Below are positions 3,699 to 36,200 of a stretch of 37,134 nt of DNA, piece after piece. Under the pieces are notes generated by a model, which worked only from the letters and a program-made list of their open reading frames with translations, had not been told where the DNA came from and did not search any database. Position 1 is the first letter of the stretch; the number at the start of each line of letters is the position of its first letter. Made by a program: the position numbers and the translations under genes. The DNA is from a virus (taxonomy: Duplodnaviria > Heunggongvirae > Uroviricota > Caudoviricetes), in IMG/VR virus record IMGVR_UViG_2703719349_000005; one strand, given 5' to 3'.

Positions 3699-3925
3699 TG
3701 GCTGATGCAATGGATCTCGTACAGCAGCGCGTTGAAGAAGAACGCCAGCGCCATATCCGTGCTGCCCGTGCCAAAACACCGGGCGTGTCTCGCGTGCTTT
3801 GCATTGAGTGTGAAGCGCCAATTCCGCCAGCACGCCGCCGTGCCATTCCGGGTGTGCAGCTTTGCATTACCTGTCAGGAAATCGCAGAGCTGAAAGGCAA
3901 ACATTACAACGGAGGTGCTGTATGA
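3698..3925 (+). CDS. TraR/DksA-family C4 zinc-finger protein
   Basis: C-x2-C...C-x2-C motif (CIECEAPIPPARRRAIPGVQLCITCQ) in a 75-aa protein. Start overlaps the upstream stop (ATGA). Confidence 0.6.
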   Translation: MADAMDLVQQRVEEERQRHIRAARAKTPGVSRVLCIECEAPIPPARRRAIPGVQLCITCQEIAELKGKHYNGGAV

Positions 3926-4776
3926 GCACTATCCTGAAATGGGCGGGAAATAAAACCGCCATAATGTCCGAACTGAAAAAACACCTTCCTGCTGGCCCGC
4001 GACTGGTTGAACCTTTCGCGGGTTCCTGTGCTGTGATGATGGAGACGGATTACCCCAGCTATCTGGTTGCGGATATTAATCCTGATTTAATCAACCTCTA
4101 TAAAAAGGTTGCCGCTGATTGTGAATCGTTTATATCTCGCGCCAGAGTTTTATTTGAGATCGCAAACAGGGAGGTGGCTTATTACAACATAAGGCAGGAG
4201 TTTAATTACTCCACTGAAATTACTGATTTCATGAAAGCGGTATATTTTCTGTATCTCAATCGTCACGGTTACCGTGGTTTATGCCGCTATAACAAGAGCG
4301 GGCATTTCAACATTCCCTACGGTAATTATAAAAATCCGTATTTCCCTGAAAAAGAAATTCGCGCATTTGCAGAAAAAGCCCAGCGGGCAACGTTTTTCTG
4401 CGCCAGCTTTGATGAAACGCTGGCGATGTTGAAGGCGGGGGATGTGGTGTATTGCGATCCGCCGTATGACGGTACGTTTTCCGGCTATCACACTGATGGT
4501 TTCACTGAAGATGACCAGTATCACCTGGCATCCGTTCTTGAACATCGAGCATCTGAAGGACATCCGGTCATTGTTTCTAACAGTGACACGTCTTTGACCC
4601 GGTCTCTTTATCGTAATTTCACTCACCACTACATCAGGGCGAAACGCAGCATCGGCGTTGCAGCGGGGGAGGGAAAATTTGCAACAGAGATGATTGCCAC
4701 TAAATCTGCTAATTGGTTTAGTGCCGATTTTAGTAGGGGACGTGACTCTACTGTTATTTTCGGGGTGCAAGTGTGA
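3922..4776 (+). CDS. dam: DNA adenine (N6) methyltransferase, Dam family
   Basis: Translation [11 protein letters not shown]...EPFAGS...[16 protein letters not shown]...YCDPPY has the Dam SAM-binding and DPPY catalytic motifs. GGAGG upstream of ATG at 3922. Confidence 0.9.
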
Positions 4777-5603
4777 AAGAAATGCACCACGGAATTCATC
4801 ATTTCCATGGGACGCCTGTCTGGGGAAGTGCTGGCGACGTTCATCGTATTGCGGTGAGCGGAGCTGGTGCTTTCGTCTCCTATGTACGACCAGATCAGAT
4901 TGCGGCGTCCATTCAGCACGCTCAGGTCGTTGGCATTGATAACGGCGCATTTTCTGCATGGGGGCGTGGGCTAAAAATTAACTGGAGTGATTTTTATAAA
5001 TGGCTCCTGAACTATTACCACCATCCTAAGGTCGCTTTTTTTGTCATTCCTGATGTTGTGGACGGAGGTGAACGTGACAATGATGCCCTGATAAACGAAG
5101 TTCCGAAAATGTTCTACGGGAAGGCAACTCCCGTCTGGCATCTGCACGAGTCAATCGATCGGCTTATCGAGTTATGTCGTGAATGGCCTCGTGTCTGCTT
5201 TGGATCGTCTGGTGAATATGCGGCTATTAGAACTGCGCACTGGCATCGTCGTATGCAGGACGCTTTTGAAGCAATTTATTGCCGACACAATTTCAAAACA
5301 GCTGTTCATGGTTTGCGCATGCTTGACGGTCGTGTGTTGGGAAATTACCCACTGGCGACTGCCGACAGTACAAATCTTGCCTGCAATGTCCCCAAATTTA
5401 ATAGCAAATATCCTGAGCTTACGCGGGCTATTCAGGAGGCTGAGTATTCGCGCAATCTGACGGAAAAGGAGCTGAAAGCTGTCATTCTGAAAAACCGTTG
5501 CGCAATTTTAAAAGGTGCAATTGAAGCTGTTCGCCCACCTTCAGTTTCTGACTGGCTGTCGAATGGTTTGCAGCCTTCACAGCTCGAACTGGAGATTGCG
5601 TAA
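4773..5603 (+). CDS. Conserved phage protein, possibly TGT-fold / DpdA-like (DNA 7-deazaguanine transglycosylase-like)
   Basis: 276-aa ORF overlapping the dam stop (GTGTGA; GTG at 4773 or ATG at 4782). Weak resemblance to tRNA-guanine transglycosylase motifs: [10 protein letters not shown] (cf. DSGGFQ), [15 protein letters not shown]. No C-terminal zinc motif. The family call is tentative. Confidence 0.4.
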
Positions 5604-7975
5604 TGAACTACAGCTATTCCTGGAATGCTGAGAAAAAAGCAATCAATCCTTACGTAGAGACAGAAGAGCAATCTTCAGTTTCTGCGCTTTCAAACCTGAT
5701 CGCTCTGTACGCTGCCGATAACGAGCAGGAACACCTGCGCCGCGAGGTACTGAGTGATCAGGTCTGGGAGCGTTATTTCTTTAATGAATCCCGTGATCCT
5801 GTCCAGCGCGAAATGGAGCAGGATAAGCTCATTAGTCGGGCAAAGCTGGCGCATGAGCAGCAGCGTTTTAATCCAGATATGGTCATTCTGGCGGACGTCA
5901 ATGCCCAGCCTTCCCATATCAGCAAGCCGCTGATGCAACGTATTGAATACTTCAGCAGCCTTGGCAGGCCAAAGGCTTATTCCCGCTATTTGCGTGAGAC
6001 GATTAAGCCATGTCTGGAACGGCTGGAGCATGTACGCGACAGTCAGCTATCCACTTCTTTTCGCTTTATGGCAAGCCATGAAGGGCTGGACGGCCTGCTG
6101 ATTCTGCCTGAAATGAGTCAGGATCAGGTGAAACGCCTGTCCACCCTGGTAGCTGCGCATATGAGTATGTGCCTTGATGTAGCTTGTGGTGATTTGTATG
6201 CCACCGATGATGTTAAGCCAGAAGAAATCCGCAAGACATGGGAAAAGGTGGCTGCAGAAACCCTGCGACTGGATGTCATACCGCCTGCGTTTGAGCAACT
6301 CCGCCGGAAAAGAAACCGCCGCAAACCTGTGCCTTATGAACTCATCCCGGGTTCGCTGGCGCGTATGCTGTGCGCCGACTGGTGGTATCGGAAATTATGG
6401 AAGATGCGTTGCGAATGGCGGGAAGAGCAGTTGCGTGCTGTCTGCCTGGTCAGCAAAAAAGCATCTCCCTATGTCAGCTATGAAGCCGTGATGCATAAAC
6501 GTGAGCAGCGCCGTAAGTCGCTGGAGTTTTTCCGTTCTCATGAACTGGTGAACGAAGACGGCGACACGCTGAACATGGAGGATGTGGTAAACGCCAGCAG
6601 CAGCAACCCGGCGCATCGCCGCAACGAGATGATGGCCTGTGTTAAAGGCCTGGAGCTTATCGCGGAAATGCGTGGTGACTGCGCCGTTTTCTACACCATC
6701 ACCTGTCCGTCACGTTTCCATTCCACGCTAAATAACGGCAGGCCAAACCCGACCTGGACCAACGCGACAGTAAGACAAAGCAGTGATTATTTGGTCGGCA
6801 TGTTTGCTGCATTTCGTAAGGCGATGCACAAAGCCGGATTGCGCTGGTATGGCGTGCGGGTGGCTGAGCCGCATCATGACGGTACAGTTCACTGGCACCT
6901 GTTGTGTTTTATGCGCAAAAAAGACCGCCGCGCCATCACTGCATTACTGCGTAAGTTTGCCATTCGTGAAGACCGCGAGGAGCTGGGTAATAACACGGGA
7001 CCACGCTTTAAGTCTGAGCTGATAAACCCGCGCAAAGGTACGCCAACAAGCTACATCGCGAAATACATCAGTAAGAACATTGACGGGCGTGGTCTGGCTG
7101 GTGAGATCAGCAAGGAAACGGGTAAATCCCTGCGTGATAACGCTGAATACGTTAATGCCTGGGCGTCTCTGCATCGTGTTCAGCAATTCCGCTTCTTTGG
7201 TATTCCGGGGCGTCAGGCTTACCGTGAACTGCGATTGCTGGCTGGTCAGGCGGCAAGGCAGCAGGGGGACAAAAAAGCAGGTGCGCCGGTACTGGATAAC
7301 CCACGCCTTGATGCCATCCTGGCTGCTGCTGATGCTGGCTGTTTTGCCACCTACATCATGAAGCAGGGCGGCGTGCTGGTTCCCCGCAAATATCACCTTA
7401 TCAGAACAGCTTATGAAATTAACGAAGAGCCGACCGCCTATGGCGATCACGGTATTCGTATTTATGGCATCTGGTCACCCATTGCAGAGGGTAAGATCTG
7501 CACTCATGCAGTGAAGTGGAAAATGGTTCGTAAAGCCGTTGACGTTCAGGAGGCGGCAGCCGACCAGGGCGCTTGCGCCCCTTGGACTCGTGGCAATAAC
7601 TGTCCCCTTGCTGAAAATTTGAACCAACATGAGAAAGATGAATCAGCAGATGGGGATACCAGAACGGACATTACCTGCATGGATGACAAGGAATTGCACG
7701 ATTACCTGCACAGTATGAGCAAAAAAGAGCGCCGGGAACTGGCAGCAAGATTGCGCCTGGTTAAACCGAAACGGCGTAAAGACTACAAACAGCGAATTAC
7801 AGAGTATCAGCGTCAGCAGCTCGTCTATGAACTGAAGTCCAGAGGATTTGATGGCAGCGAGAAAGAGGTCGATTTGCTCCTTTGCGGTGGCAGTATTCCG
7901 TCAGGAGCAGGCCTGCGTATCTTCTATCGGAACCAGCGTTTGCAGGAAGATGATAAGTGGCGGAACCTGTATTAA
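5603..7975 (+). CDS. A: Replication initiation protein A (rolling-circle nickase)
   Basis: 790-aa ORF at the P2 gene A position, with HxH-type metal motif ([10 protein letters not shown]) and a tyrosine region ([11 protein letters not shown]) typical of gpA. Confidence 0.88.
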
Positions 7976-8129
7976 TCACGCGGGTTAACAATTCGTGCTC
8001 TTAATAATACCAGGCATATCAGGCTGATGAACGTAAAAAAACGTTTTACATCAGTAAGATTATTATATACTGTAAATATAAACAGTGGTTATATGTACAG
8101 TATTGCGTATGGTGTTATAGGAGGAAAGA

Positions 8130-8317
8130 TGCAGGACTATTTTTTGGAGTCTTTGAAGCTCCAGCGCATTGATTTTTTTCTTAAGCTTGTAGCGGCTAGT
8201 GAGTGTAGTGATGAAGAGAAGGGGCTAGCTCTGCAGTGGGTTTCTGAATTGACTGATGAGTTGATGGCGAAAATTCGAAGCCATGAATACAGTAGGTCGA
8301 TGGATGTAATCAGTTGA
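8130..8317 (+). CDS. Small hypothetical protein (62 aa)
   Basis: AGGAGG 5 nt before ATG at 8130; a hairpin follows downstream. AT-rich. The longer six-frame ORF from 8027 is probably upstream extension. Confidence 0.45.
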
Positions 8318-8350
8318 GCTTGTTTCGTTAGGACTTGATAAGGGAACCGA

Positions 8351-8369
8351 AAAGGGGCATTAAGCCCCT
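8351..8369. terminator. Bidirectional stem-loop between convergent genes
   Basis: AAGGGGC-attaa-GCCCCTT inverted repeat between the 8130..8317 (+) gene and the 8385..8684 (-) gene. Confidence 0.4.
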
Positions 8370-8384
8370 TTCTCATAAGTTGAT

Positions 8385-8684
8385 TTAGTTGTTACCCAAA
8401 GAGCCGGCCATGGCTGCATATTTAATTTCTTCGCTGGGTATTTCAGGATGTAGTTGAATTTGCCTGATGATATAGCCAGGAACTTCTTCACTCCACAGTT
8501 TCGCCGCGTCCTTACAGACCTTATACGCGAAGTCTCTATTCTCAAAGGCATAGGATTTTCCGTATGCATATTGCTGACAGGCATGAACATAAGCTCCGAA
8601 GTCGCCGTCTTTATCTGGCAAAGCACATCCAGCTAAGGCTATGATGATTGCTACTAACGTAAAGGAGAAAGTTATACGTTTCAT
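8385..8684 (-). CDS. Small lipoprotein (99 aa), unknown function
   Basis: Signal peptide with lipobox (MKRITFSFTLVAIIIALAGC). Confidence 0.6.
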   Translation of the reverse strand: MKRITFSFTLVAIIIALAGCALPDKDGDFGAYVHACQQYAYGKSYAFENRDFAYKVCKDAAKLWSEEVPGYIIRQIQLHPEIPSEEIKYAAMAGSLGNN

Positions 8685-8792
8685 GGTCTCTTTCTAAGCG
8701 TTTAGCATTATTTAACTAAGGGGTATCTGCCGTGATTTGGTAGTCCCTGATATATATTCTCAGGGACTATGCTGAAGTAGCTTTAATTTTGA

Positions 8793-9600
8793 TTATTTAG
8801 AAAGGTACTTATCTCTAAGTTGATTCAGTCTGTCAGCATCGCGTTCTGAAAACTCGGCGTCACCATAGATCGATTTCCCATCTGCGTCTTCAAGGCCAAT
8901 GACTGTGACGGTAAATATAGCATCAGCCGGAACTTTAAGTTTTCCCCAATCAGAGTATCTATTAGGGGCTAATTTCCAGTTGGCTTTCTCACCTGGTTCC
9001 AGACCTCCAGAAATTTTATAGTTGAAGACGTCAGAGAACCAAGGGACGCTTCTTCCTGGGCTGGCAATAACTCCTTTGAAGAATACTCTGGCAACCGCTT
9101 TGTCTGTTCCGTTTTCAACGCTAATATCCAGAATTGGCTGATCATTGCCGTAATCCTCTTTCTGGAAATAAAAACGGGAACGTTCGACCTTGAAGGCTTT
9201 CATTTTTTCCGCAGCCTGTGTTGCAGAGGTTTGTTTGGCTTCCAGTTCTTTTATTTCTTGCAGAGCCTGTTCTTTCTCTCTCTTCTCACGCTCAAGGCGA
9301 ATAGTTTGTGCGTAATTTATAACCTCATCACCAGTTTTACCTTCCAACGCTGACTTAATTTTTGTTTCGTAGACGTCCCCAGAAGACGTTCCAGCCTGCA
9401 TTAGCTCTCTCATGTTGATTTGGCTAAAGGCAACGACTTTAACTGCATCATCAAACTGAGCTTTTTTATCTGCAGGTAAGGACTCTCTTACTTTTTGAAT
9501 GGACTCTTTCATCGACTGATCGCTTGATGCATCGATCTTCGGTTTGTCACAAGCAGTAAGCAGCAGAGCAAAAGCAATTACGCCAGTTAATTTCTTCATA
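8793..9600 (-). CDS. Lipoprotein with central coiled-coil (269 aa), unknown function
   Basis: Likely start is ATG at 9600 (MKKLTGVIAFALLLTACDKP, lipobox LTAC). Central EREKREKEQALQEIKELEAKQ coiled-coil and a beta-rich C-terminal half. The six-frame ORF extends to 9671 but the lipobox start is preferred. Confidence 0.6.
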
Positions 9601-10128
9601 TCCCTATCCCAATCGTAAAAAAACAAGGCTAATCCTAACAGGATTAGCGGGCATGACAAACTCATAGCCATATAGGTGTGCTGTATAAATTAGCGGGATG
9701 AGAAAGCCTGCACAGACCCTCATGTTGAAACTTGATTTTAGCTCAAAAGAGCTGACACTAAATAACTGCGCGGAATAATGCTCCACTTTCGGTTAGCCCT
9801 TGGCCCTTGGCCCTTGCTGGGTAAGGCGTGGGGCCGTTTTCTTCGCCTGATCCTGCTGTATCTGGCCTACAGTAGGTTGTCCTTACGCGACATGCCACAT
9901 GTCAGTAAACGGCAGGTGTAGCAGTATTAGACGCAGCTATTTAGTGTGTATTAAGCTGGCTCATATTTATGACTGGTTTCAAGGTTTGACCGATTTTCAT
10001 GTCATGCATGTCTATGCTGCATGAGTTCGCATGATCGTTTGAGGATCGGTTTGGCTAAGACATGCCAGAACTGGCGGGCTTTTGCTCATGTCATGCAGGT
10101 GCATGAAAACTACTACATAAAGCGGGCA

Positions 10129-10147
10129 GGCGTGGCGGGGATACGAG
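10129..10147. other. Candidate cos (cohesive-end) site
   Basis: GGCGTGGCGGGGATACGAG shares its first 13 nt with the recalled 186 cohesive end (GGCGTGGCGGGGAAAGCAT; P2 GGCGAGGCGGGGAAAGCAC). Lies in a ~670-bp non-coding region at the expected map position between the A-side cargo and Q. Confidence 0.45.
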
Positions 10148-10273
10148 CGCGCGCTTAAGGATAAATTGAAGTTGATTTAATTTTTCGACATGGATAATCT
10201 TAACTACGTATGATTATTGATAAAAAATAAACATAAACAATTGTAGCGGATCTTAAAACTTATTAGGATTAGT

Positions 10274-11335
10274 ATGCTTAAAACAAATAAGGTATTTATT
10301 GACACACAAACGTACGTAAAGGCTGGTCTTCATTTTGAGGGGGTAGCATTTAAAGCTTTCCATGAATTATGTGCGAAAGGTGATTTAGTCTTAATTACAA
10401 CTACAGTTGTAGAGAGAGAAGTAAAAGGTAAAATAGAGGAATCAATAAAGGATGCTCTGCAGGCTATAAACACAGTACAAAGAAAAGCTAGGCTTTTGAA
10501 TAGTATTGATAATGGACCGCTCCATGATTTTTTTCAGCAATTTAACGAACATGAAATTCACGAAGCAGCACAAAAAGTTTTTGATGATTTTTTGAAAGGA
10601 TGTCACGCCAAATTAGCTACAATAGAAGTGATAGATCTTAATGAGGTTTTAGATAAATACTTTGGCAAAGAACCACCATTTGGGCAAAATAAGAAAAAAA
10701 GTGAGTTTCCTGATGCAATCACTTTAGCTGCGGTAGAGCGATTTGTTAATGATGAAGATGTGTATATCATTTCTGAGGATAGTGACTTAAAAAATTATTG
10801 TGATGGTAAAAACAATCTTCATCAAATTGATTCACTTGATAAGTTTCTAGGTGAATACAATACGCATACAAACGAATTAAGTAATAAATTGATGCAGTTT
10901 ATCGAAAGCAAACGTGAAGACATAAGAGCGGACGTAATTGCCCAACTCAATGATGCCGATGGATATAACGTTTCAACTTGGGAAGACGCTGAATTGGATT
11001 CATTTGAAGTCGTCAATATTGATGACTTTGAACCATCAATAATTAAGATTAACAATAATTATTGTCTAGCGACCTTCTCTGTTTCTGTAGATTTTGAAGT
11101 TACTGTTTCTGGTCCAGACTTTAATAATGGGTATTGGGATAGCGAAGATAAAGTAATGATTCCAATGGAGACAACCACACGAACTGAAGTTCAAGAGATT
11201 AGTTTCGATATTGAAATTGAAGTTATGTATGAAATCGAGGATGGTGAATTAACAGATATCGCATTTGATGTGAATATTGATAAGTTATCCCGAGGGATTG
11301 AGTTCTCTATTGAAGAAAATAATTTTGAATATTAA
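10274..11335 (+). CDS. PIN-like nuclease-domain protein with acidic C-terminal domain (353 aa); candidate defence / exclusion cargo
   Basis: N-terminal VFIDTQ (Asp in strand 1), VVEREV, SEFPDAITLAAV and ISEDSDL acidic motifs are consistent with a PIN fold. C-terminal ~180 aa is D/E-rich and beta-rich. Very AT-rich. Confidence 0.5.
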   Translation: MLKTNKVFIDTQTYVKAGLHFEGVAFKAFHELCAKGDLVLITTTVVEREVKGKIEESIKDALQAINTVQRKARLLNSIDNGPLHDFFQQFNEHEIHEAAQKVFDDFLKGCHAKLATIEVIDLNEVLDKYFGKEPPFGQNKKKSEFPDAITLAAVERFVNDEDVYIISEDSDLKNYCDGKNNLHQIDSLDKFLGEYNTHTNELSNKLMQFIESKREDIRADVIAQLNDADGYNVSTWEDAELDSFEVVNIDDFEPSIIKINNNYCLATFSVSVDFEVTVSGPDFNNGYWDSEDKVMIPMETTTRTEVQEISFDIEIEVMYEIEDGELTDIAFDVNIDKLSRGIEFSIEENNFEY

Positions 11336-11372
11336 TTCGTTCATAACGGCATCATTGTGATGCCGTTGGGTT

Positions 11373-12401
11373 TTATAATGTATATATTTCAAAATTTATA
11401 ATTTCATGACCAAGCCATCTGTTTATTTCCATGAATCTTTTTTGAAGTGGTAATAGTTCATTTCTTACGAAGATGCAGCTCGCCTTCTCCACATCACCAA
11501 AACCCCCAACATTATTCGGCAAAATTCCCATCATCTGAGGCGGTACGCGGTGTGCCGCCATCATGTCATCACGGCTGACGTTCTTGATGCTCAGAAATTC
11601 ATCCTTCGCCGCGACTTCTGACAACGGGATGATCTGAAGCCCGTCCTTTTTGCCGTTAGGCGAGTACATAAACAGGTTGCGGAAGTTGCCAGGGCCTTTG
11701 GCGCTTTTCATCGCATTGCGGAGGTTGTTCACATCCTCCTGGTTCTGCGCGGCATCGGTCATGTACATGATGAAGCCTGCATGGCTGCCGTTAATGTAAT
11801 ACTTCCGGCGGAACAGCGTGGCGGACTCGTTGAGCAGGGCTGACGGAATGGCAGAAAGATAACCTGGTAGGCCGTAGATCTCCTGGTTGATGTCAGGTTC
11901 CATCAGATGAAAAATGCTGCCTTTCGTGAACTGATACGGCTGGGTTGTCATACCGTATTGCACAAACCAGTAGGTATCCAGGTCTAACCCGCGTCGGGTG
12001 TATTTTGCCAGAGCAGGCTCAAGGGCGATAACTTCACCGAAGCGGTTCGTGCGTTTCTCCAGGTAGGCGTTACCAAATACCAGATAGTCCTGCACAAAAC
12101 GTGAAAAAGCCTGCTGGCTGAGCAGCGGGTGAGGGATGTAGGTACTGGTCAGAATGTTGCACTTTACTGCAATCGGAGAACTGTGATGCACGGCGGCGCG
12201 GAAGGTGCGCGCCAGTCCGTCAAAGCTGACGGGCGGCTCATACCAACGGTCCATCTGTACGCATTCCACATAGTCCAGCAGTTCACGGCGGTCCAGAACA
12301 GGAACGGGATCACCGAAGCTGAATGCTTCGGCTGAAGTCTGGCTTTTATGCTGGATCTGGTTCGTCGACGCAGCGCGGTTCTTCTTACTCTTTCCCATCA
12401 A
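11373..12401 (-). CDS. Q: Portal protein (gpQ)
   Basis: 342-aa ORF at the P2 Q position, upstream overlap with terminase gene P on the same strand. Confidence 0.88.
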   Translation of the reverse strand: MMGKSKKNRAASTNQIQHKSQTSAEAFSFGDPVPVLDRRELLDYVECVQMDRWYEPPVSFDGLARTFRAAVHHSSPIAVKCNILTSTYIPHPLLSQQAFSRFVQDYLVFGNAYLEKRTNRFGEVIALEPALAKYTRRGLDLDTYWFVQYGMTTQPYQFTKGSIFHLMEPDINQEIYGLPGYLSAIPSALLNESATLFRRKYYINGSHAGFIMYMTDAAQNQEDVNNLRNAMKSAKGPGNFRNLFMYSPNGKKDGLQIIPLSEVAAKDEFLSIKNVSRDDMMAAHRVPPQMMGILPNNVGGFGDVEKASCIFVRNELLPLQKRFMEINRWLGHEIINFEIYTL

Positions 12402-19674: not shown

Positions 19675-20104
19675 ACTGCAGAAGGTGGATGAGTGGCTGG
19701 CGGCCTTGCTGGCGAATCTGGAGCCTGCCACACGCCAGCGTATGATGCGGGAACTGGCGCAGGAGTTGCGCCGCAATCAGCAGGAGAATATCAGGCTGCA
19801 GCTTAACCCTGATGGCAGCGGCTTTGAGCCGCGCCGGGTAGCAGCCCGCAGTAAGAAGGGGCGCATCAAACGCCAGATGTTCGCCAAATTGCGCACTAAT
19901 AAATACCTGAAAACTGCCGCCACAGCGGATTATGCCTGCGTGTATTTTGATGGAAAAGTCCAGCGCATCGCCTGTGTACACCACTATGGACTGCGTGACC
20001 GTGTTAGTCGAAGAGGTTTAAAAGTACAGTACCCTGAGAGAAGGCTTTTAGGATTTACTAAGGATATTAGTAACTTGAACTTGGGTGTTTACTTAAAACG
20101 CTAA
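19667..20104 (+). CDS. S: Tail completion protein (gpS)
   Basis: 145-aa ORF at the P2 S position; last ~20 codons become AT-rich (see findings). Confidence 0.8.
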   Translation: MAELQKVDEWLAALLANLEPATRQRMMRELAQELRRNQQENIRLQLNPDGSGFEPRRVAARSKKGRIKRQMFAKLRTNKYLKTAATADYACVYFDGKVQRIACVHHYGLRDRVSRRGLKVQYPERRLLGFTKDISNLNLGVYLKR

Positions 20105-20249
20105 AGTAAATAGTGGGTTAAGAGAATTAGTGGAGGGAGACTTTATCGTTCTACATAAGATACCTTGCTTGAATATACTATAAAGCTCTTTTTTTGAGAT
20201 TAATCTTGTTGTACTTTAATGTCTTCACCTCACTAATGGAGCTAATTTT

Positions 20250-22208
20250 ATGATAGTAGGGATTTTTTTAAGGTATTTTAAAACATACAACGGAAATCAT
20301 TACATACCGTTATCTTCTGGAAGTCAGTTTTGTGGAATTGTTGGTAACAATGGAATTGGCAAAAGTTCTGTTCTTGAGGCTTTAGATTCGTTTATTAATA
20401 ACAAACCATGGAATATTAATTCTTCATTTAAAAGAACCTCCAGTGACAGACCTTCTCCACATATTGTTCCTTTATATCTTATAAAGCGAGAGGAATTACA
20501 TGAAGATCATCATGCTAAAGCTGAAATCTTAACGCAATTAGTATTAGAATATAGCAATAGTAATGCTGATGTTACATTGACGCCAACAACACGAAATATA
20601 ATTAATACGTTTTTTGAACATATTAACAAATTAAAAAGAAATTTAAATCTCCAAGATTATTTTTTGATCCCTCTGGGTGTCGAGAAAGATGGTGATGTAA
20701 GTATTTCGATTCTTAATGGGAAGAGTTTATGTCGACTTTTGGAGGTTGATAATCCCGATAATAAAGTTTCGAGCGAGTTGCTTAGTGAGCACTTTGGGTA
20801 TTTATTACATCATGTCCGCCATAAGTATGAATATATATATATTCCAAAGGATATAGACTCTGAATCGTTTACGAAGCTAGAAACAAGTGAAGTACAAAAG
20901 TTGATGGGTGAGTCTTTAGAGCAGATAATTAAAGATAGAATATCTGATAGAACCATAAGTCAAATCAATACAGGGCTTGCCAAATTTCTGGATGGTGTTG
21001 AAGAGGAGCTTGAAGAATATGGTTATAGAACATCTGGCGAGAGACAATCGCGATTAAAAAAGAAAGATGTTTATAATTTGATTATCGAAGCATTCTTCAA
21101 GGTTAGGAAATTAAATAAAAAGCAGAATTCAGGTTGGATTGAAATTAGCTCGCTAAGTTCAGGGGAGAAGCAACGTGCAATAATGGATATTGCATATGGG
21201 TTTCTTACCAATCATCGAGAAAATGGCGATAATCTGATTATTGGAATTGATGAGCCAGAATGTTCTCTTCATATGTCTGCATGTTTTGAACAATTTGAAA
21301 AGCTCTATTCTATTAGTGGTATATGTGAACAATTAATATTTACTTCACATTGGTATGGCTATCTTCCAACCGTCGAAAATGGATGTACCACAACTATCCT
21401 TAAAACAGATTCAACTCATCATTTTGAATTATATGATCTTGCCAGTTATAGAGAAGAAGTCAGGAAGAAAGTAAAAACCTCTTCCCCGGGTATGCCATTT
21501 GATATAAAAATAAAAAGTGTAAATGACCTTATACAATCCATAATATCTAGCTGTTTGGCTGAGAAACCTTACAATTGGTTGATTTGTGAGGGTACTACAG
21601 AAAAAATATATCTTTCGCATTATCTAAAGGACTTGGTAGAAAATAAAAGGCTAAGGATTGTGCCTGTAGGGGGAGCTAGTGAAGTTAAAAAAATATTTAA
21701 GCATTTAGAAGCTTCTTATGAAGAGTTCAAAAAAGACCTCAAAGGAAAAGTGTTCTTACTAACCGATACAGATTCAGAGTTGGTGTCATATGATACCCCA
21801 GTTATGCCGCATGTTGTTTGTAAGCGAATTGTTAGTGTAGGTGATTCAGTGAAGTTGGTTGATATTTCTTCCAATCCAGTTTCTCCTGCAACAGAAATAG
21901 AGGATTGTCTTAATCCTGTATCGTTTATAGAGGCTTTAACATCATTTTCTTCACGTTTTCCTGAGCTTCAGGCATTGCTGCCTAATAGTAATGTTATGAT
22001 AGATGAAAGACATTCATCGTTTGCTGCGATGGATTTGTCACCCAAGAACAAAAAAACGCTTGATGCTTTTTTTGACCGTGAAGGGATTAAGTTTGATTTT
22101 TCAAAGGAATATATTTCAATCTGTGAGCGAAATGAGCGGAAAAGGCCAGAGTGGATTGCCAAAATTGAAAATTTTTTTATAAGTGATAAACCTGTAAAGT
22201 TTAATTGA
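20250..22208 (+). CDS. OLD/GajA-like ABC-type ATPase fused to Toprim-like nuclease domain (652 aa); candidate antiphage cargo
   Basis: Walker A GNNGIGKSS, ABC-signature-like LSSGEKQ, Walker B LIIGIDEPE, H-loop-like TSHW. C-terminal Toprim-like acidic motifs WLICEGTTEK, IVPVGG, FLLTDTDSE. Strongly AT-rich relative to flanking phage genes. Confidence 0.65.
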   Translation: MIVGIFLRYFKTYNGNHYIPLSSGSQFCGIVGNNGIGKSSVLEALDSFINNKPWNINSSFKRTSSDRPSPHIVPLYLIKREELHEDHHAKAEILTQLVLEYSNSNADVTLTPTTRNIINTFFEHINKLKRNLNLQDYFLIPLGVEKDGDVSISILNGKSLCRLLEVDNPDNKVSSELLSEHFGYLLHHVRHKYEYIYIPKDIDSESFTKLETSEVQKLMGESLEQIIKDRISDRTISQINTGLAKFLDGVEEELEEYGYRTSGERQSRLKKKDVYNLIIEAFFKVRKLNKKQNSGWIEISSLSSGEKQRAIMDIAYGFLTNHRENGDNLIIGIDEPECSLHMSACFEQFEKLYSISGICEQLIFTSHWYGYLPTVENGCTTTILKTDSTHHFELYDLASYREEVRKKVKTSSPGMPFDIKIKSVNDLIQSIISSCLAEKPYNWLICEGTTEKIYLSHYLKDLVENKRLRIVPVGGASEVKKIFKHLEASYEEFKKDLKGKVFLLTDTDSELVSYDTPVMPHVVCKRIVSVGDSVKLVDISSNPVSPATEIEDCLNPVSFIEALTSFSSRFPELQALLPNSNVMIDERHSSFAAMDLSPKNKKTLDAFFDREGIKFDFSKEYISICERNERKRPEWIAKIENFFISDKPVKFN

Positions 22209-22217
22209 TAAATGGTC

Positions 22218-22236
22218 GCAGGGGAAACCCTGCGAT
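22218..22236 (+). terminator. Stem-loop after the cargo gene (TCGCAGGG-gaaa-CCCTGCGA)
   Basis: Perfect 8-bp inverted repeat with a GAAA loop 10 bp after the stop; no clear U-tract. Confidence 0.4.
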
Positions 22237-22243
22237 ATTCTAC

Positions 22244-22318
22244 TAACCTCTAACCTCTAACCTCTAACCTCTAACCTCTAACCTCTAACCTCTAACCTCT
22301 AACCTCTAACCTCTAACC
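22244..22318. repeat. Perfect heptanucleotide microsatellite (TAACCTC) x ~10.7
   Basis: Read directly: ten full tandem copies of TAACCTC plus a partial copy, between the cargo gene hairpin and the P_V dyad. Confidence 0.95.
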
Positions 22319-22346
22319 AGAGGGTTTATTTCTTTTCAAAGAAAAT

Positions 22347-22364
22347 TGTATCTTCTTTTATACA
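22347..22364 (+). promoter_or_regulatory. Late-promoter activator dyad TGT-N12-ACA upstream of V
   Basis: TGTATCTTCTTTTATACA read directly, about 50 bp upstream of the V start. Confidence 0.5.
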
Positions 22365-22411
22365 AAATAAGCTGTTTGAAGAGGTTGTGTAAAGCATGGA
22401 AAAATAATCTT

Positions 22412-22990
22412 ATGAATACACAACTCACAGAAATCATGCGCCTTATCACCAACCTGATCCGCACAGGGGTAGTCACTGAAGTGGACAAGGAAAACTGGCT
22501 TTGTCGGGTGAAAACGGGCGACCTTGAAACCAACTGGATTAACTGGCTGACGCTGCGCGCGGGTAATGCCCGCACATGGTGGCGACCATCGGAAGGTGAG
22601 CAGGTGGTGCTGCTGAGTCTGGGAGGTAATCTGGAAACAGCCTTTGCGCTGCCCGCCATCTATTCGAATCAGTTCGCACCACCGTCGACGTCGGCAGATG
22701 CCTGCGTGATAGAACATCCTGACGGTGGCTGGTTTGAATACGAACCCGCCACTGGGCGCTGGTATGTCAGGGGCATCAAATCAATGGTCATTGAGGCCGC
22801 CGACAATATCACCCTGAAAACCAGTGAGTTTGTGCTGGAGGCTGACCGCACGCGTATTAACAGCGAAGTGGTGATCAATGGTGGCGTTACCCAGGGCGGC
22901 GGAGCGATGAGTTCTAACGGGATCGTGGTTGATGCGCATCAGCATACTGGCGTTCTGAAAGGCGGCGACACAACCGGAGGCCCGGTATGA
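22412..22990 (+). CDS. V: Baseplate spike / assembly protein (gpV)
   Basis: Start at ATG 22412 (MNTQLTEIMRLITNLIRTGVVTEVDKENWLCRV...), gpV-like. Confidence 0.85.
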   Translation: MNTQLTEIMRLITNLIRTGVVTEVDKENWLCRVKTGDLETNWINWLTLRAGNARTWWRPSEGEQVVLLSLGGNLETAFALPAIYSNQFAPPSTSADACVIEHPDGGWFEYEPATGRWYVRGIKSMVIEAADNITLKTSEFVLEADRTRINSEVVINGGVTQGGGAMSSNGIVVDAHQHTGVLKGGDTTGGPV

Positions 22991-34279: not shown

Positions 34280-34360
34280 CTCTGCCGCCAATTTGTCGCC
34301 ATCATTAAAAAACAGTGCGTCTAACATCATGATTTTAAACAGCTTAAATTTCAGGCAACA

Positions 34361-34413
34361 AAAAACCCATCAACCTTGAACCGAAATGGCGGGGTTGATG
34401 GGCTCCACAAAAT
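34361..34413 (-). terminator. Rho-independent terminator (minus strand) downstream of ybjL
   Basis: Inverted repeat CCCATCAACC...GGTTGATGGG followed on the minus strand by a T6 run. Confidence 0.55.
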
Positions 34414-34514
34414 GGGGACATCAAAGAAAAGCAGTGGCACTAATTAAGACTGATGCCCTGCGGAAAAGTTCTGCGGTTGTGCAAAAAAATTTCATTTTCA
34501 GGGCAACTTCAGTT

Positions 34515-36200
34515 TTATCCTAATCCTGGCCATACCATGACGATGATTGTCCCTGCCAGCGTCAGCAGGACGTTGGCGATTGCGTAGGTGCCCGCATAGC
34601 CCAGCGCAGGGATGTTACTGCGAGCTGTATCACTGATGATCTCCATTGCCGGCGCGCAGGTGCGTGCGCCCATCATTGCGCCGAACAACAGTGCGCGGTT
34701 CATTCGCAATACATAAGCACCGAACAAGAAACAGATAACCACGGGCACAAGACTGACAATTAATCCGGCAATCAACATCTGACCGCCAATCGCGCCCAGG
34801 CCGTTATTAATACCGCTACCGGCGCTCAGACCAACGCCTGCCATAAACACCATCAAGCCGAACTCTTTCACCATGCTTAATGCACCTTGCGGAATGTAAC
34901 CGAAGGTCGGGTGGTTAGCACGCATAAAGCCCAGCATAATTCCGGCGAATAACAACCCGGCAGCGTTCCCCATGCCGAAACTGAATGTGCTGAACTGGAA
35001 GGTGATCATCCCGATCATCAGCCCAATAACAAAGAAGGCGCAAAATGCCAGCAGGTCAGTGACCTGGCTGTGAATCGAGATAAAGCCGATGCGATCGGCG
35101 ATGGTTTTTACGCGACGGGCATCACCGCTGACTTGTAAAACGTCACCTTTGTTAAGCACGACGTTGTCATCTATCGGCATCTCAATCTGGCTACGAATGA
35201 CGCGGTTAAGGAAGCAACCGTGATCGGTCAACTTCAGTTGTGCGAGACGTTTACCTACAGCGTTATGGTTTTTAACGACCACTTCTTCAGTGACGATACG
35301 CATGTCGAGAAGGTCACGATCGAAAACTTCTTTACCGTTACGGAAGCTGGGATCGAGTCGGGCATGGGCGTCGGGATAGCCTACCAACGCTATTTCATCG
35401 CCCATTTGTAGCACGGCATCACCGTCTGGATTTGCCAGAATCCCGTTACGTCGAATACGTTCAATGTAGCAGCCGGTTTGTCGATAAATACCCAGTTCAC
35501 GCAGATTTTTGCCGTCGGTCCAGGCCACCAGCTCCGGGCCGACGCGATAGGCGCGGATCACCGGTAAATAAACCTTACGGTTGGCATCAGTGTCCAGGCC
35601 ACGTTCGCGGGCGATTTGCTGGGCGCTGGTCTGTAAGTCCTGATGCTGCAATTTCGGCAAGTAACGCGCACCAACAATCAAACTCACCAGACCGATTAAA
35701 TAGGTTAAGGCATACCCGAGGCTCAGATTATCCAGTGCCAGTGAGAGCTGCCTGCTTTCCATGCCGAAATGACGCAGTGTATCGCCAGCACCGACCAGAA
35801 CCGGTGTCGACGTCATAGAGCCTGCTAACATACCGGCCGTCAGGCCAATATCCCAGCCAAACAGCTTACCTAACCCTAAGGCGATCACCAGCGCACTGCC
35901 AACCATCACCAGTGCTAACATTAGGTAATTTTTCCCATCGCGAAAAAAAATGGAAAAAAAGTTCGGTCCGGCTTCGACCCCGACGCAGAAAATAAACAGC
36001 ATAAAGCCAAGATTAAGCGCATCGGTGTTAATGCTGAAATGTTGTTGGCCTAATAACAGCGATACGACTAAAACGCCAATGGAATTACCCAGTTGGATCG
36101 AACCAAGTCGTAACTTTCCGAGACATAGCCCAAGCGCGAGGACCACAAATAATAACAGAATGTAATTCCCATTTAACAATTCGGCGACGTTTATATTCAC
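34515..36200 (-). CDS. ybjL: Putative transport protein YbjL (AspT/YidE/YbjL family, two TrkA-C domains)
   Basis: 561-aa translation ([36 protein letters not shown]...) matches E. coli YbjL as I recall it. Confidence 0.88.

Follow-up and report, generated by a model that had tools for sequence, protein, structure and literature searches.

The stretch of DNA considered here (37,134 nt, virus record IMGVR_UViG_2703719349_000005 of IMG/VR, Caudoviricetes; hereafter, the window) comprises a complete P2/Fels-2-like prophage plus host DNA at its right end. The element of interest is a module inserted behind the replication gene A that carries, on the minus strand, the genes of two predicted lipoproteins of 99 and 268 aa (Table 1). 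Going from A to the portal gene Q, the interval is occupied by a 62-aa open reading frame (ORF), the 99-aa ORF, the 268-aa ORF, about 670 bp without a credible gene and, finally, the gene of a PIN_12 protein. The GC content is 0.40-0.43 in positions 8001-9500, to be compared with approximately 0.50-0.55 in gene A and 0.53-0.59 in Q and P. The first-pass annotation of this DNA had, in general terms, described the place properly: the block does follow gene A (which ends at 7975), the three ORFs are present on the strands indicated, the cargo differs from the tin and old genes of P2, and the lipoboxes LAGC (99-aa protein) and LTAC (268-aa protein) are both found and pass the PROSITE PS51257-type lipoprotein rule. 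The length that it gave for the large lipoprotein, 269 aa, has to be corrected to 268. The three ORFs have full-length PHROG matches (phrog_698, phrog_7666 and phrog_7468, with E-values from 1e-37 to 7e-161, all of them families of unknown function) and, since 354 and 14 homologous protein clusters were additionally found for the 268-aa and the 99-aa proteins, respectively, they are to be taken as real genes and not as chance readings.

Table 1. Features of the A-Q interval, followed by other features of the prophage and its surroundings (positions refer to the window unless another locus is named).
Feature	Position	Strand	Remarks
Inserted module	8319..10004		both lipoprotein genes and the MITE-like element; borders are BLAST breakpoints
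99-aa predicted lipoprotein	8385..8684	-	lipobox LAGC, Cys20; mature protein of 80 aa
268-aa DUF6694-family lipoprotein	8793..9599	-	lipobox LTAC, Cys17
GC-rich hairpin	8351..8371		AAAGGGGC-attaa-GCCCCTTT; lies where the 62-aa and 99-aa genes converge; runs of A and T flank it
Hairpin with a 10-bp stem	8741..8769	-	in the 108-nt spacer between the lipoprotein genes
Hairpin and T-run	9628..9648	-	GCTAATCCTGTTAGGATTAGC CTTGTTTTTT; overlaps the promoter-like site of the DUF6694 gene
Promoter-like site of the DUF6694 gene	9632..9659	-	TTGTCA, 16-nt spacer, TG-n-TAGGAT (extended -10)
MITE-like element, ~193 bp	9755..9947		forms the right part of the module; terminal inverted repeats of 40 nt, imperfect
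LexA (SOS) box	8070..8085	+	CTGTAAATATAAACAG; 44 nt upstream of the 62-aa ORF
62-aa ORF (tumA-like)	8129..8317	+	Fels-2-type upstream 'tum' gene; ATG after AGGAGG
PIN_12 protein, 353 aa	10274-11335	+	PF16289, E = 1.8e-25; weak DUF7339
139-aa partner lipoprotein	5571-5990 in L015 and 5571-5990 in L023		lipobox MVGC or IVGC; five Cys in the mature L015 copy
Integrase gene	left edge of the window		followed by the CI, CII and Dam genes
Dam methylase gene	3862-4776		
276-aa ORF	4773-5603	+	between the Dam gene and A, overlapping each by a few bases; position of orf84 of 186
Replication gene A	5603-7975	+	
Portal gene Q	11373-12401	-	followed by terminase P and then the late genes
652-aa OLD-family protein	20250-22208	+	second low-GC cargo site, among late/tail genes
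RybB small RNA gene	34357-34435	-	105 bits
Asp-Al_Ex/TrkA_C permease gene	34515-36200	-	

The borders of the module come from BLAST comparisons of the window with E. coli LR-29-1, E. coli KS-NP019 and Fels-2. Positions 7901-8318 are common to the three of them at 94-100% identity and positions 10005-10155 at 90-100%; what lies in between is seen only in LR-29-1-type prophages; at that site, Fels-2 and KS-NP019 lack it and have instead a 324-bp segment with a DinI-like (tumB) gene. The lipoprotein genes, described beforehand as lying at the tin/old position, do not stand in the main variable slot: it is the DinI/tumB gene that they have replaced, and the slot proper (10156-11372) lies outside the block originally delimited. 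This second slot varies independently; it holds the PIN_12 gene in the window and in KS-NP019, while LR-29-1 has three hypothetical genes there and Fels-2 has others. Among 5,426 complete E. coli genomes, the module is present in 20, at 98.9% identity or more and always within P2-like prophages; the cargo to its right differs among these genomes, and the combination of the module with PIN_12 cargo occurs in none of the 5,426. Furthermore, an SSU5-like phage-plasmid of Citrobacter has the pair of lipoprotein genes at 74% identity and with a spacer of the same length, 108 nt, and three small E. coli plasmids carry the gene of the 268-aa protein (a member of the DUF6694 family, as described below) on its own, at 99.3% identity. 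Three marks of a moron were found, namely deviant GC content, presence or absence among collinear phages, and copies in unrelated phage-plasmids, siphophages and plasmids, and, judged by these comparisons, the segment 8319-10004 is a horizontally acquired, self-contained moron that replaces the tumB/DinI-like gene of a Fels-2-type prophage. The A-Q region of such prophages has two separate exchange slots, that of tumB/DinI and the hotspot proper, behind the conserved SOS-controlled tumA.

The right part of the module is taken up by an element resembling a miniature inverted-repeat transposable element (MITE), whose terminal inverted repeats show 78% complementarity. Copies with 70-83% identity are present in about 130 other E. 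coli genomes, at sites such as the neighbourhood of an rhs locus or a P1-like plasmid near a tnpB gene. The MITE-like element matches no Rfam family, and an Rfam search of the whole of 7950-10300 gave no match even at E up to 1.

The 268-aa protein belongs to the Pfam family PF20404 (DUF6694), whose profile it matches over residues 7-101 with 79.2 bits (cut-off, 24.3); all 106 homologues in the alignment match the family too, and the identical protein in RefSeq is named “DUF6694 family lipoprotein”. The frame also stays open for a 292-aa reading that starts at 9671; RefSeq and the family alignment, however, favour the 268-aa start. The 354 homologous clusters cover 91-100% of the query (85-89% in two partial ones) at 47-79% identity, most of the homologues have 261-292 aa, the mean column identity is 63% and many residues of the C-terminal half are invariant. 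At the N-terminus, two Lys/Arg in the first seven residues are followed by an uncharged hydrophobic stretch that ends in VIAFALLLTAC, with Cys17 as the lipidation candidate. This cysteine is nearly invariant (at least 90%) across the 106 homologues, and a lipobox is present in 70 of 71 chromosomal ones. The mature protein would start with Cys-Asp-Lys, and Asp at +2, by the established +2 rule, predicts its retention at the inner membrane. Nearly all Enterobacterales members examined share this Asp, among them the copies of E. coli siphophages; only two Pectobacterium proteins, with Asn, and one sequence with Gly depart from it. In other taxa, Ser, Gly or Ala occupies that position.

An AlphaFold2 model built on the 106-sequence alignment (predicted local distance difference test score, pLDDT, 87.9) consists of the signal peptide, a helical domain (residues 27-85), a 44-residue helix (90-133), a β-sandwich (136-245) and a C-terminal helix. 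The “coiled-coil” reported previously for this protein corresponds to the long helix of that model, which is confidently predicted. Regarding known families, the profile scans (Pfam, PHROGs and NCBIfam, at E up to 1) gave only families of unknown function for the lipoproteins, except for a match to Cor (phrog_1119, E = 0.054) that is limited to residues 1-20 of the 268-aa protein, that is, to the signal peptide. No match to the Bor, TraT, Lom, Ltp, Llp, SieA/B or gp15/YebO families was obtained in those scans, and a profile search of the PDB by sequence gave no match at E up to 1 for either lipoprotein family.

The 99-aa protein has a lipoprotein signal as well (two Lys/Arg in the first seven residues, an uncharged hydrophobic stretch and LVAIIIALAGC with Cys20), and Ala at +2 predicts its sorting to the outer membrane. 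It matches phrog_7666 with E = 1.3e-64, and no Pfam, NCBIfam or PADLOC family was found for it. Its 14 homologous clusters are all from Enterobacteriaceae, and a profile search of 1.84 billion representatives yielded no true remote relative of the family, since the two extra matches obtained were rejected as translated tandem repeats. Within the 15 homologues compared, Cys20 is invariant in all; C36, C57 and the PDKD-D residues of a PDKDGD motif are likewise invariant in the family, and G27 nearly so. That motif was considered as an EF-hand-like calcium loop and rejected, as it has no Gly at position 6 and no acidic residue at 12. The structural model is poor (pLDDT 63.6) and shows four helices after the signal peptide, with no fold match in Foldseek (best E = 3.3).

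Every copy of the 99-aa gene that was found is on a mobile element, be it a P2-like prophage, one of about 230 phage-plasmids of some 100-120 kb, a lambdoid prophage (between the terminase and the lysis genes) or the end of a Salmonella prophage. In most of these elements, including phage-plasmids and lambdoid prophages, a gene for a 139-aa lipoprotein is located 10 nt upstream; this partner was examined as a relative of DUF6694 and discarded, the resemblance being limited to the signal peptide. In the Citrobacter phage-plasmid the 99-aa gene follows a DUF6694 gene, as here, and in some elements it stands alone. Given this variety of upstream partners, the 99-aa gene is the constant element and the upstream lipoprotein gene is exchangeable. 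At the Salmonella prophage end, by dsbB (L019 5465-5971), it is preceded by the gene of a 168-aa cytoplasmic protein with a CxC...CxH motif and a SWIM-like look, and followed by a hok/gef toxin gene.

As regards its expression signals, the module contains a promoter-like site in front of the DUF6694 gene, whose extended -10 element (TGTTAGGAT) and downstream T-run are conserved in the Citrobacter phage-plasmid and in a small-plasmid copy. These expression signals fit a moron and are consensus matches only; promoter-like sites are no more numerous than in shuffled sequences (four found, 5.1 expected). The hairpin overlapping this site may insulate the DUF6694 gene from minus-strand transcription coming from upstream, a terminator role that is uncertain because its left arm is not conserved in the Citrobacter copy. 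The hairpin in the spacer between the two lipoprotein genes is more stable than expected (z = -2.85; none of 200 shuffles folds as well), and the 74%-identical Citrobacter copy retains its stem core (AGTCCC/GGGACT) as well as the distance of 108 nt between the genes; given that it lacks a U-run, it is probably an mRNA element rather than a terminator. Finally, the GC-rich hairpin that separates the 62-aa gene from the 99-aa gene facing it folds on either strand (z = -2.4 and -2.25) and looks like a bidirectional terminator, although a strict terminator scan did not call it.

The DUF6694 family is encoded on 85 IMG/VR viral contigs, of which 80 loci were kept, and in 51 of these (64%) the gene directly adjoins that of the tape-measure protein, on the same strand and at a distance of 5-76 nt. 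It lies 5-68 nt upstream of the tape-measure gene in 30 loci (in the one checked, L087, after the tail tube and tail assembly chaperone genes) and 57-76 nt downstream of it in 21 (in the one checked, L051, the minor tail protein genes M and L come next). A further 13 loci, of P2-like or phage-plasmid type, have the 99-aa gene downstream, and the remaining 16 have other contexts. The adjoining tape-measure genes belong to at least three Pfam tape-measure families, and the named phages include E. coli PHB10, two Pseudomonas phages and Marinobacter AS1.

In cellular genomes, DUF6694 is carried by about 120 of 185,579 species representatives (~0.06%), distributed over at least seven phyla (Pseudomonadota, Desulfobacterota, Bacteroidota, Acidobacteriota and Planctomycetota among them) and with 38-54% identity, a rare and scattered distribution that fits a mobile accessory gene better than a housekeeping one. 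In the chromosomal loci that are not tape-measure-adjacent (two of which have a more distant large ORF), the commonest neighbour Pfam families are WYL (5), BrxA (3), AAA_15 (2) and GmrSD_N (2). In an Alcanivorax group, a divergent WYL regulator gene on the minus strand is followed by DUF6694 and brxA on the plus strand; this placement between WYL and brxA is seen in an Alloalcanivorax metagenome-assembled genome (MAG; L156 2936-6013) and also in L163 and L165, with L202 for the BrxA side, and, going by its neighbours, the DUF6694 gene of that MAG is inside a bacteriophage exclusion (BREX) locus. Phaeodactylibacter (L203) has a divergent WYL-WCX gene, then DUF6694 and HsdM, one MAG has a divergent WYL-WCX gene immediately upstream of DUF6694, Maricurvus has an OLD-type AAA_15-TOPRIM gene directly upstream of it, and in marine genomes the gene resides in an island with ThsB-TIR, DUF4145 and toxin-antitoxin genes. 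No report of the adjacency of DUF6694 to tape-measure genes or to WYL/BREX genes was found in the literature searched.

Upstream of the module, the 62-aa ORF deserves separate consideration, as it had been counted as part of the cargo. It matches phrog_698 with E = 1.2e-37 and is 95% identical to STM2728 of Fels-2, which occupies the same position after gene A. Of 66 phage records with the gene, 58 are 84-98% identical to it (Fels-2, SopEPhi, RE2010 and P2-like phages of Klebsiella, Yersinia and E. coli) and the other eight are below 60%. The ORF and the LexA box in front of it are both conserved in two relatives, Fels-2 and the KS-NP019 prophage of E. coli. The box is the single occurrence of CTGT-N8-ACAG in the whole window, and the 20-mer around it (8068-8087, TACTGTAAATATAAACAGTG) has three differences from the LexA consensus TACTGTATATATATACAGTA. 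An alternative 96-aa reading from 8027 would cross the LexA box, which is why the 62-aa start is preferred. Considering this conservation, the 62-aa ORF is a gene of the conserved backbone and not cargo. At the equivalent position, phage 186 has the annotated SOS promoter p95, a LexA site and tum. In Fels-2 and PSP3, tum is split in two, with an upstream antirepressor gene and a downstream DinI homologue (PMC3121763), a statement about the antirepressor that is based on a personal communication concerning PSP3. The 62-aa ORF resembles Tum of 186 and TumA/TumB of PSP3 and Fels-2 in its position after A and in the LexA box at its promoter, to which is added the 95% identity to the upstream half of the Fels-2 tum region. 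A BLASTP comparison with 186 Tum gave no alignment at E up to 100, and the functional assignment consequently relies on position, LexA box and literature, from which the ORF is probably an SOS-induced antirepressor of the TumA type. In this prophage the lipoprotein cassette has taken the place of the second, DinI-like gene, and the loss of DinI/tumB may alter its response to SOS induction.

Some other observations on the prophage and its surroundings can be added. Between the tum region and the variable cargo there is a non-coding segment of 150 bp (10005-10155), conserved at 90-100% in all Fels-2-type relatives, which could be a cargo promoter or serve in packaging. A search for the cohesive-end 19-mers of P2 and 186, meant to place cos relative to the cassette, found neither of them anywhere in the window with up to three mismatches allowed. 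The PIN_12 gene to the right pairs with tumA-DinI in other E. coli prophages, and its product has no PADLOC match; in the P2-hotspot table of Rousset et al. 2022 (Table S5A) it is given as “PIN_12”, and the lipoproteins appear there only as “hypothetical”. The corresponding slot of LR-29-1 (L001 8261-9929) contains the co-oriented hypothetical genes WP_000752436, WP_135960113 and WP_001009569; these might correspond to a system of three genes, lacking recognisable domains, for which Rousset et al. report protection against P1. Upstream of A, the 276-aa ORF has no Pfam or PADLOC match. The 652-aa OLD-family protein has AAA_15 (E = 2e-17) as well as a TOPRIM domain of the OLD-like type (E = 2e-6) and matches AriA (8.5e-22) and Old (2.4e-11) in PADLOC; it is surrounded by a low-GC island (20001-22500, GC 0.33-0.37), so that the “old”-like gene of this prophage lies at another site than in P2. 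At the other end, the RybB and permease genes are host DNA, which puts the right end of the prophage just before ~34350.

Taking all this together, we propose, with a probability of roughly one in two, that the module, expressed autonomously, acts as a cassette of two envelope lipoproteins by which superinfecting phages are excluded. The cassette would be transcribed in the opposite direction to the early operon, from the extended -10 promoter at ~9632-9659, and its transcript would end at the hairpin shared with the SOS-controlled tumA gene. Its own promoter-like site, the opposite strand and the shared hairpin together point to an expression in the lysogen that would be independent of phage development. 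Both products are predicted to be exported and lipidated. The 268-aa protein would sit on the inner membrane facing the periplasm, its helical stalk holding the conserved β-sandwich off the membrane, and the 99-aa lipoprotein would be found at the inner leaflet of the outer membrane. From there, the DUF6694 protein may interfere with genome injection across the periplasm, acting either on the tape-measure conduit of long-tailed phages or on a conserved host factor that injection needs, in the manner of HK97 gp15 and TP-J34 Ltp. The small protein might be a second exclusion factor at the level of the receptor, of the Cor/Llp type, or an accessory of the DUF6694 protein. This refines what had been suggested at first, namely that the two lipoproteins are exclusion, receptor-masking or conversion factors: as exclusion or conversion factors both are still plausible candidates, while receptor masking fits the small protein only, since the large one carries an inner-membrane retention signal and the contexts of its relatives lead to genome injection and defence loci and not to outer-membrane receptors.

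A wider claim, which we advance tentatively and regard as less likely than not, is that DUF6694 would be a widespread and so far unrecognised single-gene anti-phage system at work in the periplasm, a protein tethered to the inner membrane that blocks the tape-measure-mediated injection conduit of long-tailed phages or a conserved host factor needed by it, which siphophages (beside their own tape-measure gene), P2-like phages, phage-plasmids and chromosomal defence islands under WYL (BrxR-type) control would carry, and whose partner in Enterobacteriaceae would be a lineage-specific outer-membrane lipoprotein providing a second layer of exclusion.

Several facts weigh against the exclusion proposal. 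PADLOC-DB v2 has no family for any of the four proteins of the A-Q interval, and the literature search found no paper mentioning DUF6694. The slots next to tape-measure genes are simply permissive for morons of any function, and the counts of defence neighbours come from few independent lineages. IS1 interrupts the DUF6694 gene in two of the 20 E. coli copies of the module, so this gene is dispensable. As for localisation, Lys at +3 may weaken the retention conferred by Asp at +2 in E. coli. Moreover, the DUF6694 gene comes after rplS in Pectobacterium and beside a PBP5-type carboxypeptidase gene in Serratia, with no mobile element visible, and the family is unusually conserved for a protein that would recognise tape-measure proteins, which argues for a conserved host target or a cellular function. 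Some of these points lead to the main rival explanation, which is rather unlikely in our view: a lysogenic-conversion or host-fitness factor unrelated to phages, with an envelope function in the manner of lambda Bor or TraT, such as stress tolerance, homeostasis of the cell wall or the outer membrane, or resistance to serum or bacteriocins; the prophage would then just be the carrier of a host-type gene of some use. It would account for the ordinary chromosomal settings (those just mentioned and that of Lonsdalea), for a sequence very highly conserved from phylum to phylum, with invariant β-sandwich residues, which suggests a conserved cellular ligand, and for the 49 of 71 chromosomal loci where a large adjacent ORF and a small lipoprotein gene downstream are both lacking. 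It is, however, difficult to reconcile with a presence in so few and so scattered species, unlike that of a housekeeping envelope factor, with the tape-measure gene adjoining 64% of the viral copies, with the recurrence beside WYL, BREX, restriction-modification and OLD-type genes, and with the lack of matches to Bor, TraT or Lom in the scans described above.

The proximity to tape-measure genes can also be read as the sign of a function in the lytic growth of the phage itself, of the type of T5 Llp, in which late-made lipoproteins would stop the progeny from wasting its DNA on debris or on infected cells, or would aid its own injection or release, and the lysogen would be protected only incidentally. 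In siphophages, the DUF6694 gene is in fact inside the late tail operon, on the same strand as the tape-measure gene and 5-76 nt from it, and late transcripts would accordingly include it; the lipoprotein Llp of T5, reportedly encoded next to the gene whose function it counteracts, provides a precedent. Here, on the contrary, no lytic operon includes the cassette, which is on the opposite strand and has its own promoter-like site, in a myovirus with its own lysis and tail genes, and the copies on small plasmids and in BREX or restriction-modification contexts have no phage lytic programme to serve, all of which makes a lytic role quite improbable. Still less credit can be given to an envelope-spanning pair, spanin-like or otherwise interacting, in which the helical protein of the inner membrane and the small lipoprotein of the outer membrane would bridge the periplasm. 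The predicted topologies are complementary (Asp against Ala at +2), both genes and their spacer are conserved as a unit in the P2-like prophage and in the phage-plasmid, and the 139-aa lipoprotein gene found elsewhere just upstream of the 99-aa gene gives the impression that a partner is needed. Nonetheless, the DUF6694 gene is alone in most genomes and phages and the 99-aa gene sometimes is, no spanin family is matched by either protein, the 99-aa protein is helical without being rich in proline, and the cassette is outside the lysis region. A two-component spanin in the strict sense (Rz/Rz1) was rejected, given the distance of the A-Q position from the lysis genes and a large protein that is lipid-anchored and not transmembrane.

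A prophage moron lipoprotein as a candidate exclusion factor is a known kind of element, and what is particular in this case is that both families are uncharacterised. To our knowledge, exclusion at the Gram-negative envelope is the least charted layer of defence, with few proteins described (Cor, Llp, gp15, SieA and Imm/Sp), each of them with a narrow host range. If the exclusion proposal is correct, a lipoprotein family conserved over at least seven phyla, found next to tape-measure genes and within BREX and restriction-modification loci, for which a confident structural model exists, would offer a simple handle on how phage DNA crosses the periplasm.

Among the systems with which the cassette can be compared, Cor of phi80, N15 and HK022 and Llp of T5 are outer-membrane lipoproteins that inactivate FhuA. 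Being small outer-membrane lipoproteins that only enterobacterial phages encode, they are the best functional analogy for the 99-aa protein, with which they share no homology; the latter is predicted to be helical, with one disulfide. At the level of injection, SNIPE is a nuclease, bound to the membrane, that associates with tape-measure proteins while the genome is being injected (PMC13190303). It is likewise a defence located at the envelope that exploits the genome-injection step of siphophages, and it differs in being a nuclease with cytoplasmic activity, whereas the DUF6694 protein is predicted to be periplasmic and has no recognisable catalytic domain.

The closest parallels are found in prophage-encoded proteins. 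Gene 15 of HK97 was the first moron described, and its inner-membrane product blocks the injection of the genome (Cumby et al. 2012, summarised in PMC3594210). Unlike the 252-residue lipid-anchored periplasmic protein with a β-sandwich predicted here, gp15 is a small YebO-like transmembrane protein with no sequence relationship to it; in addition, the present phage is a myovirus, the gene is next to the replication gene A and not in a tail operon, and exclusion is a prediction. Nevertheless, both are autonomously expressed morons (in our case, presumably so) of temperate E. coli phages, with a product at the inner membrane that would leave the outer-membrane receptor untouched. Moreover, the slot of gp15 is the one that 30 viral DUF6694 genes occupy directly upstream of the tape-measure gene, and, as with gp15 and YebO, the DUF6694 family also has non-phage chromosomal homologues. 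The other parallel is Ltp of the Streptococcus thermophilus phage TP-J34, a superinfection-exclusion lipoprotein that targets the tape-measure protein (PMC3952083; Bebeacua 2013, via PMC10883804). Ltp belongs to a Gram-positive host, is made of helical repeat domains and is encoded in the lysogeny module, and its Pfam family is not matched by the proteins described here. Even so, it is a prophage lipoprotein that blocks the injection of DNA and is anchored on the outer face of the cytoplasmic membrane, that is, the same site and the same logic that we propose for the DUF6694 protein of this cassette.

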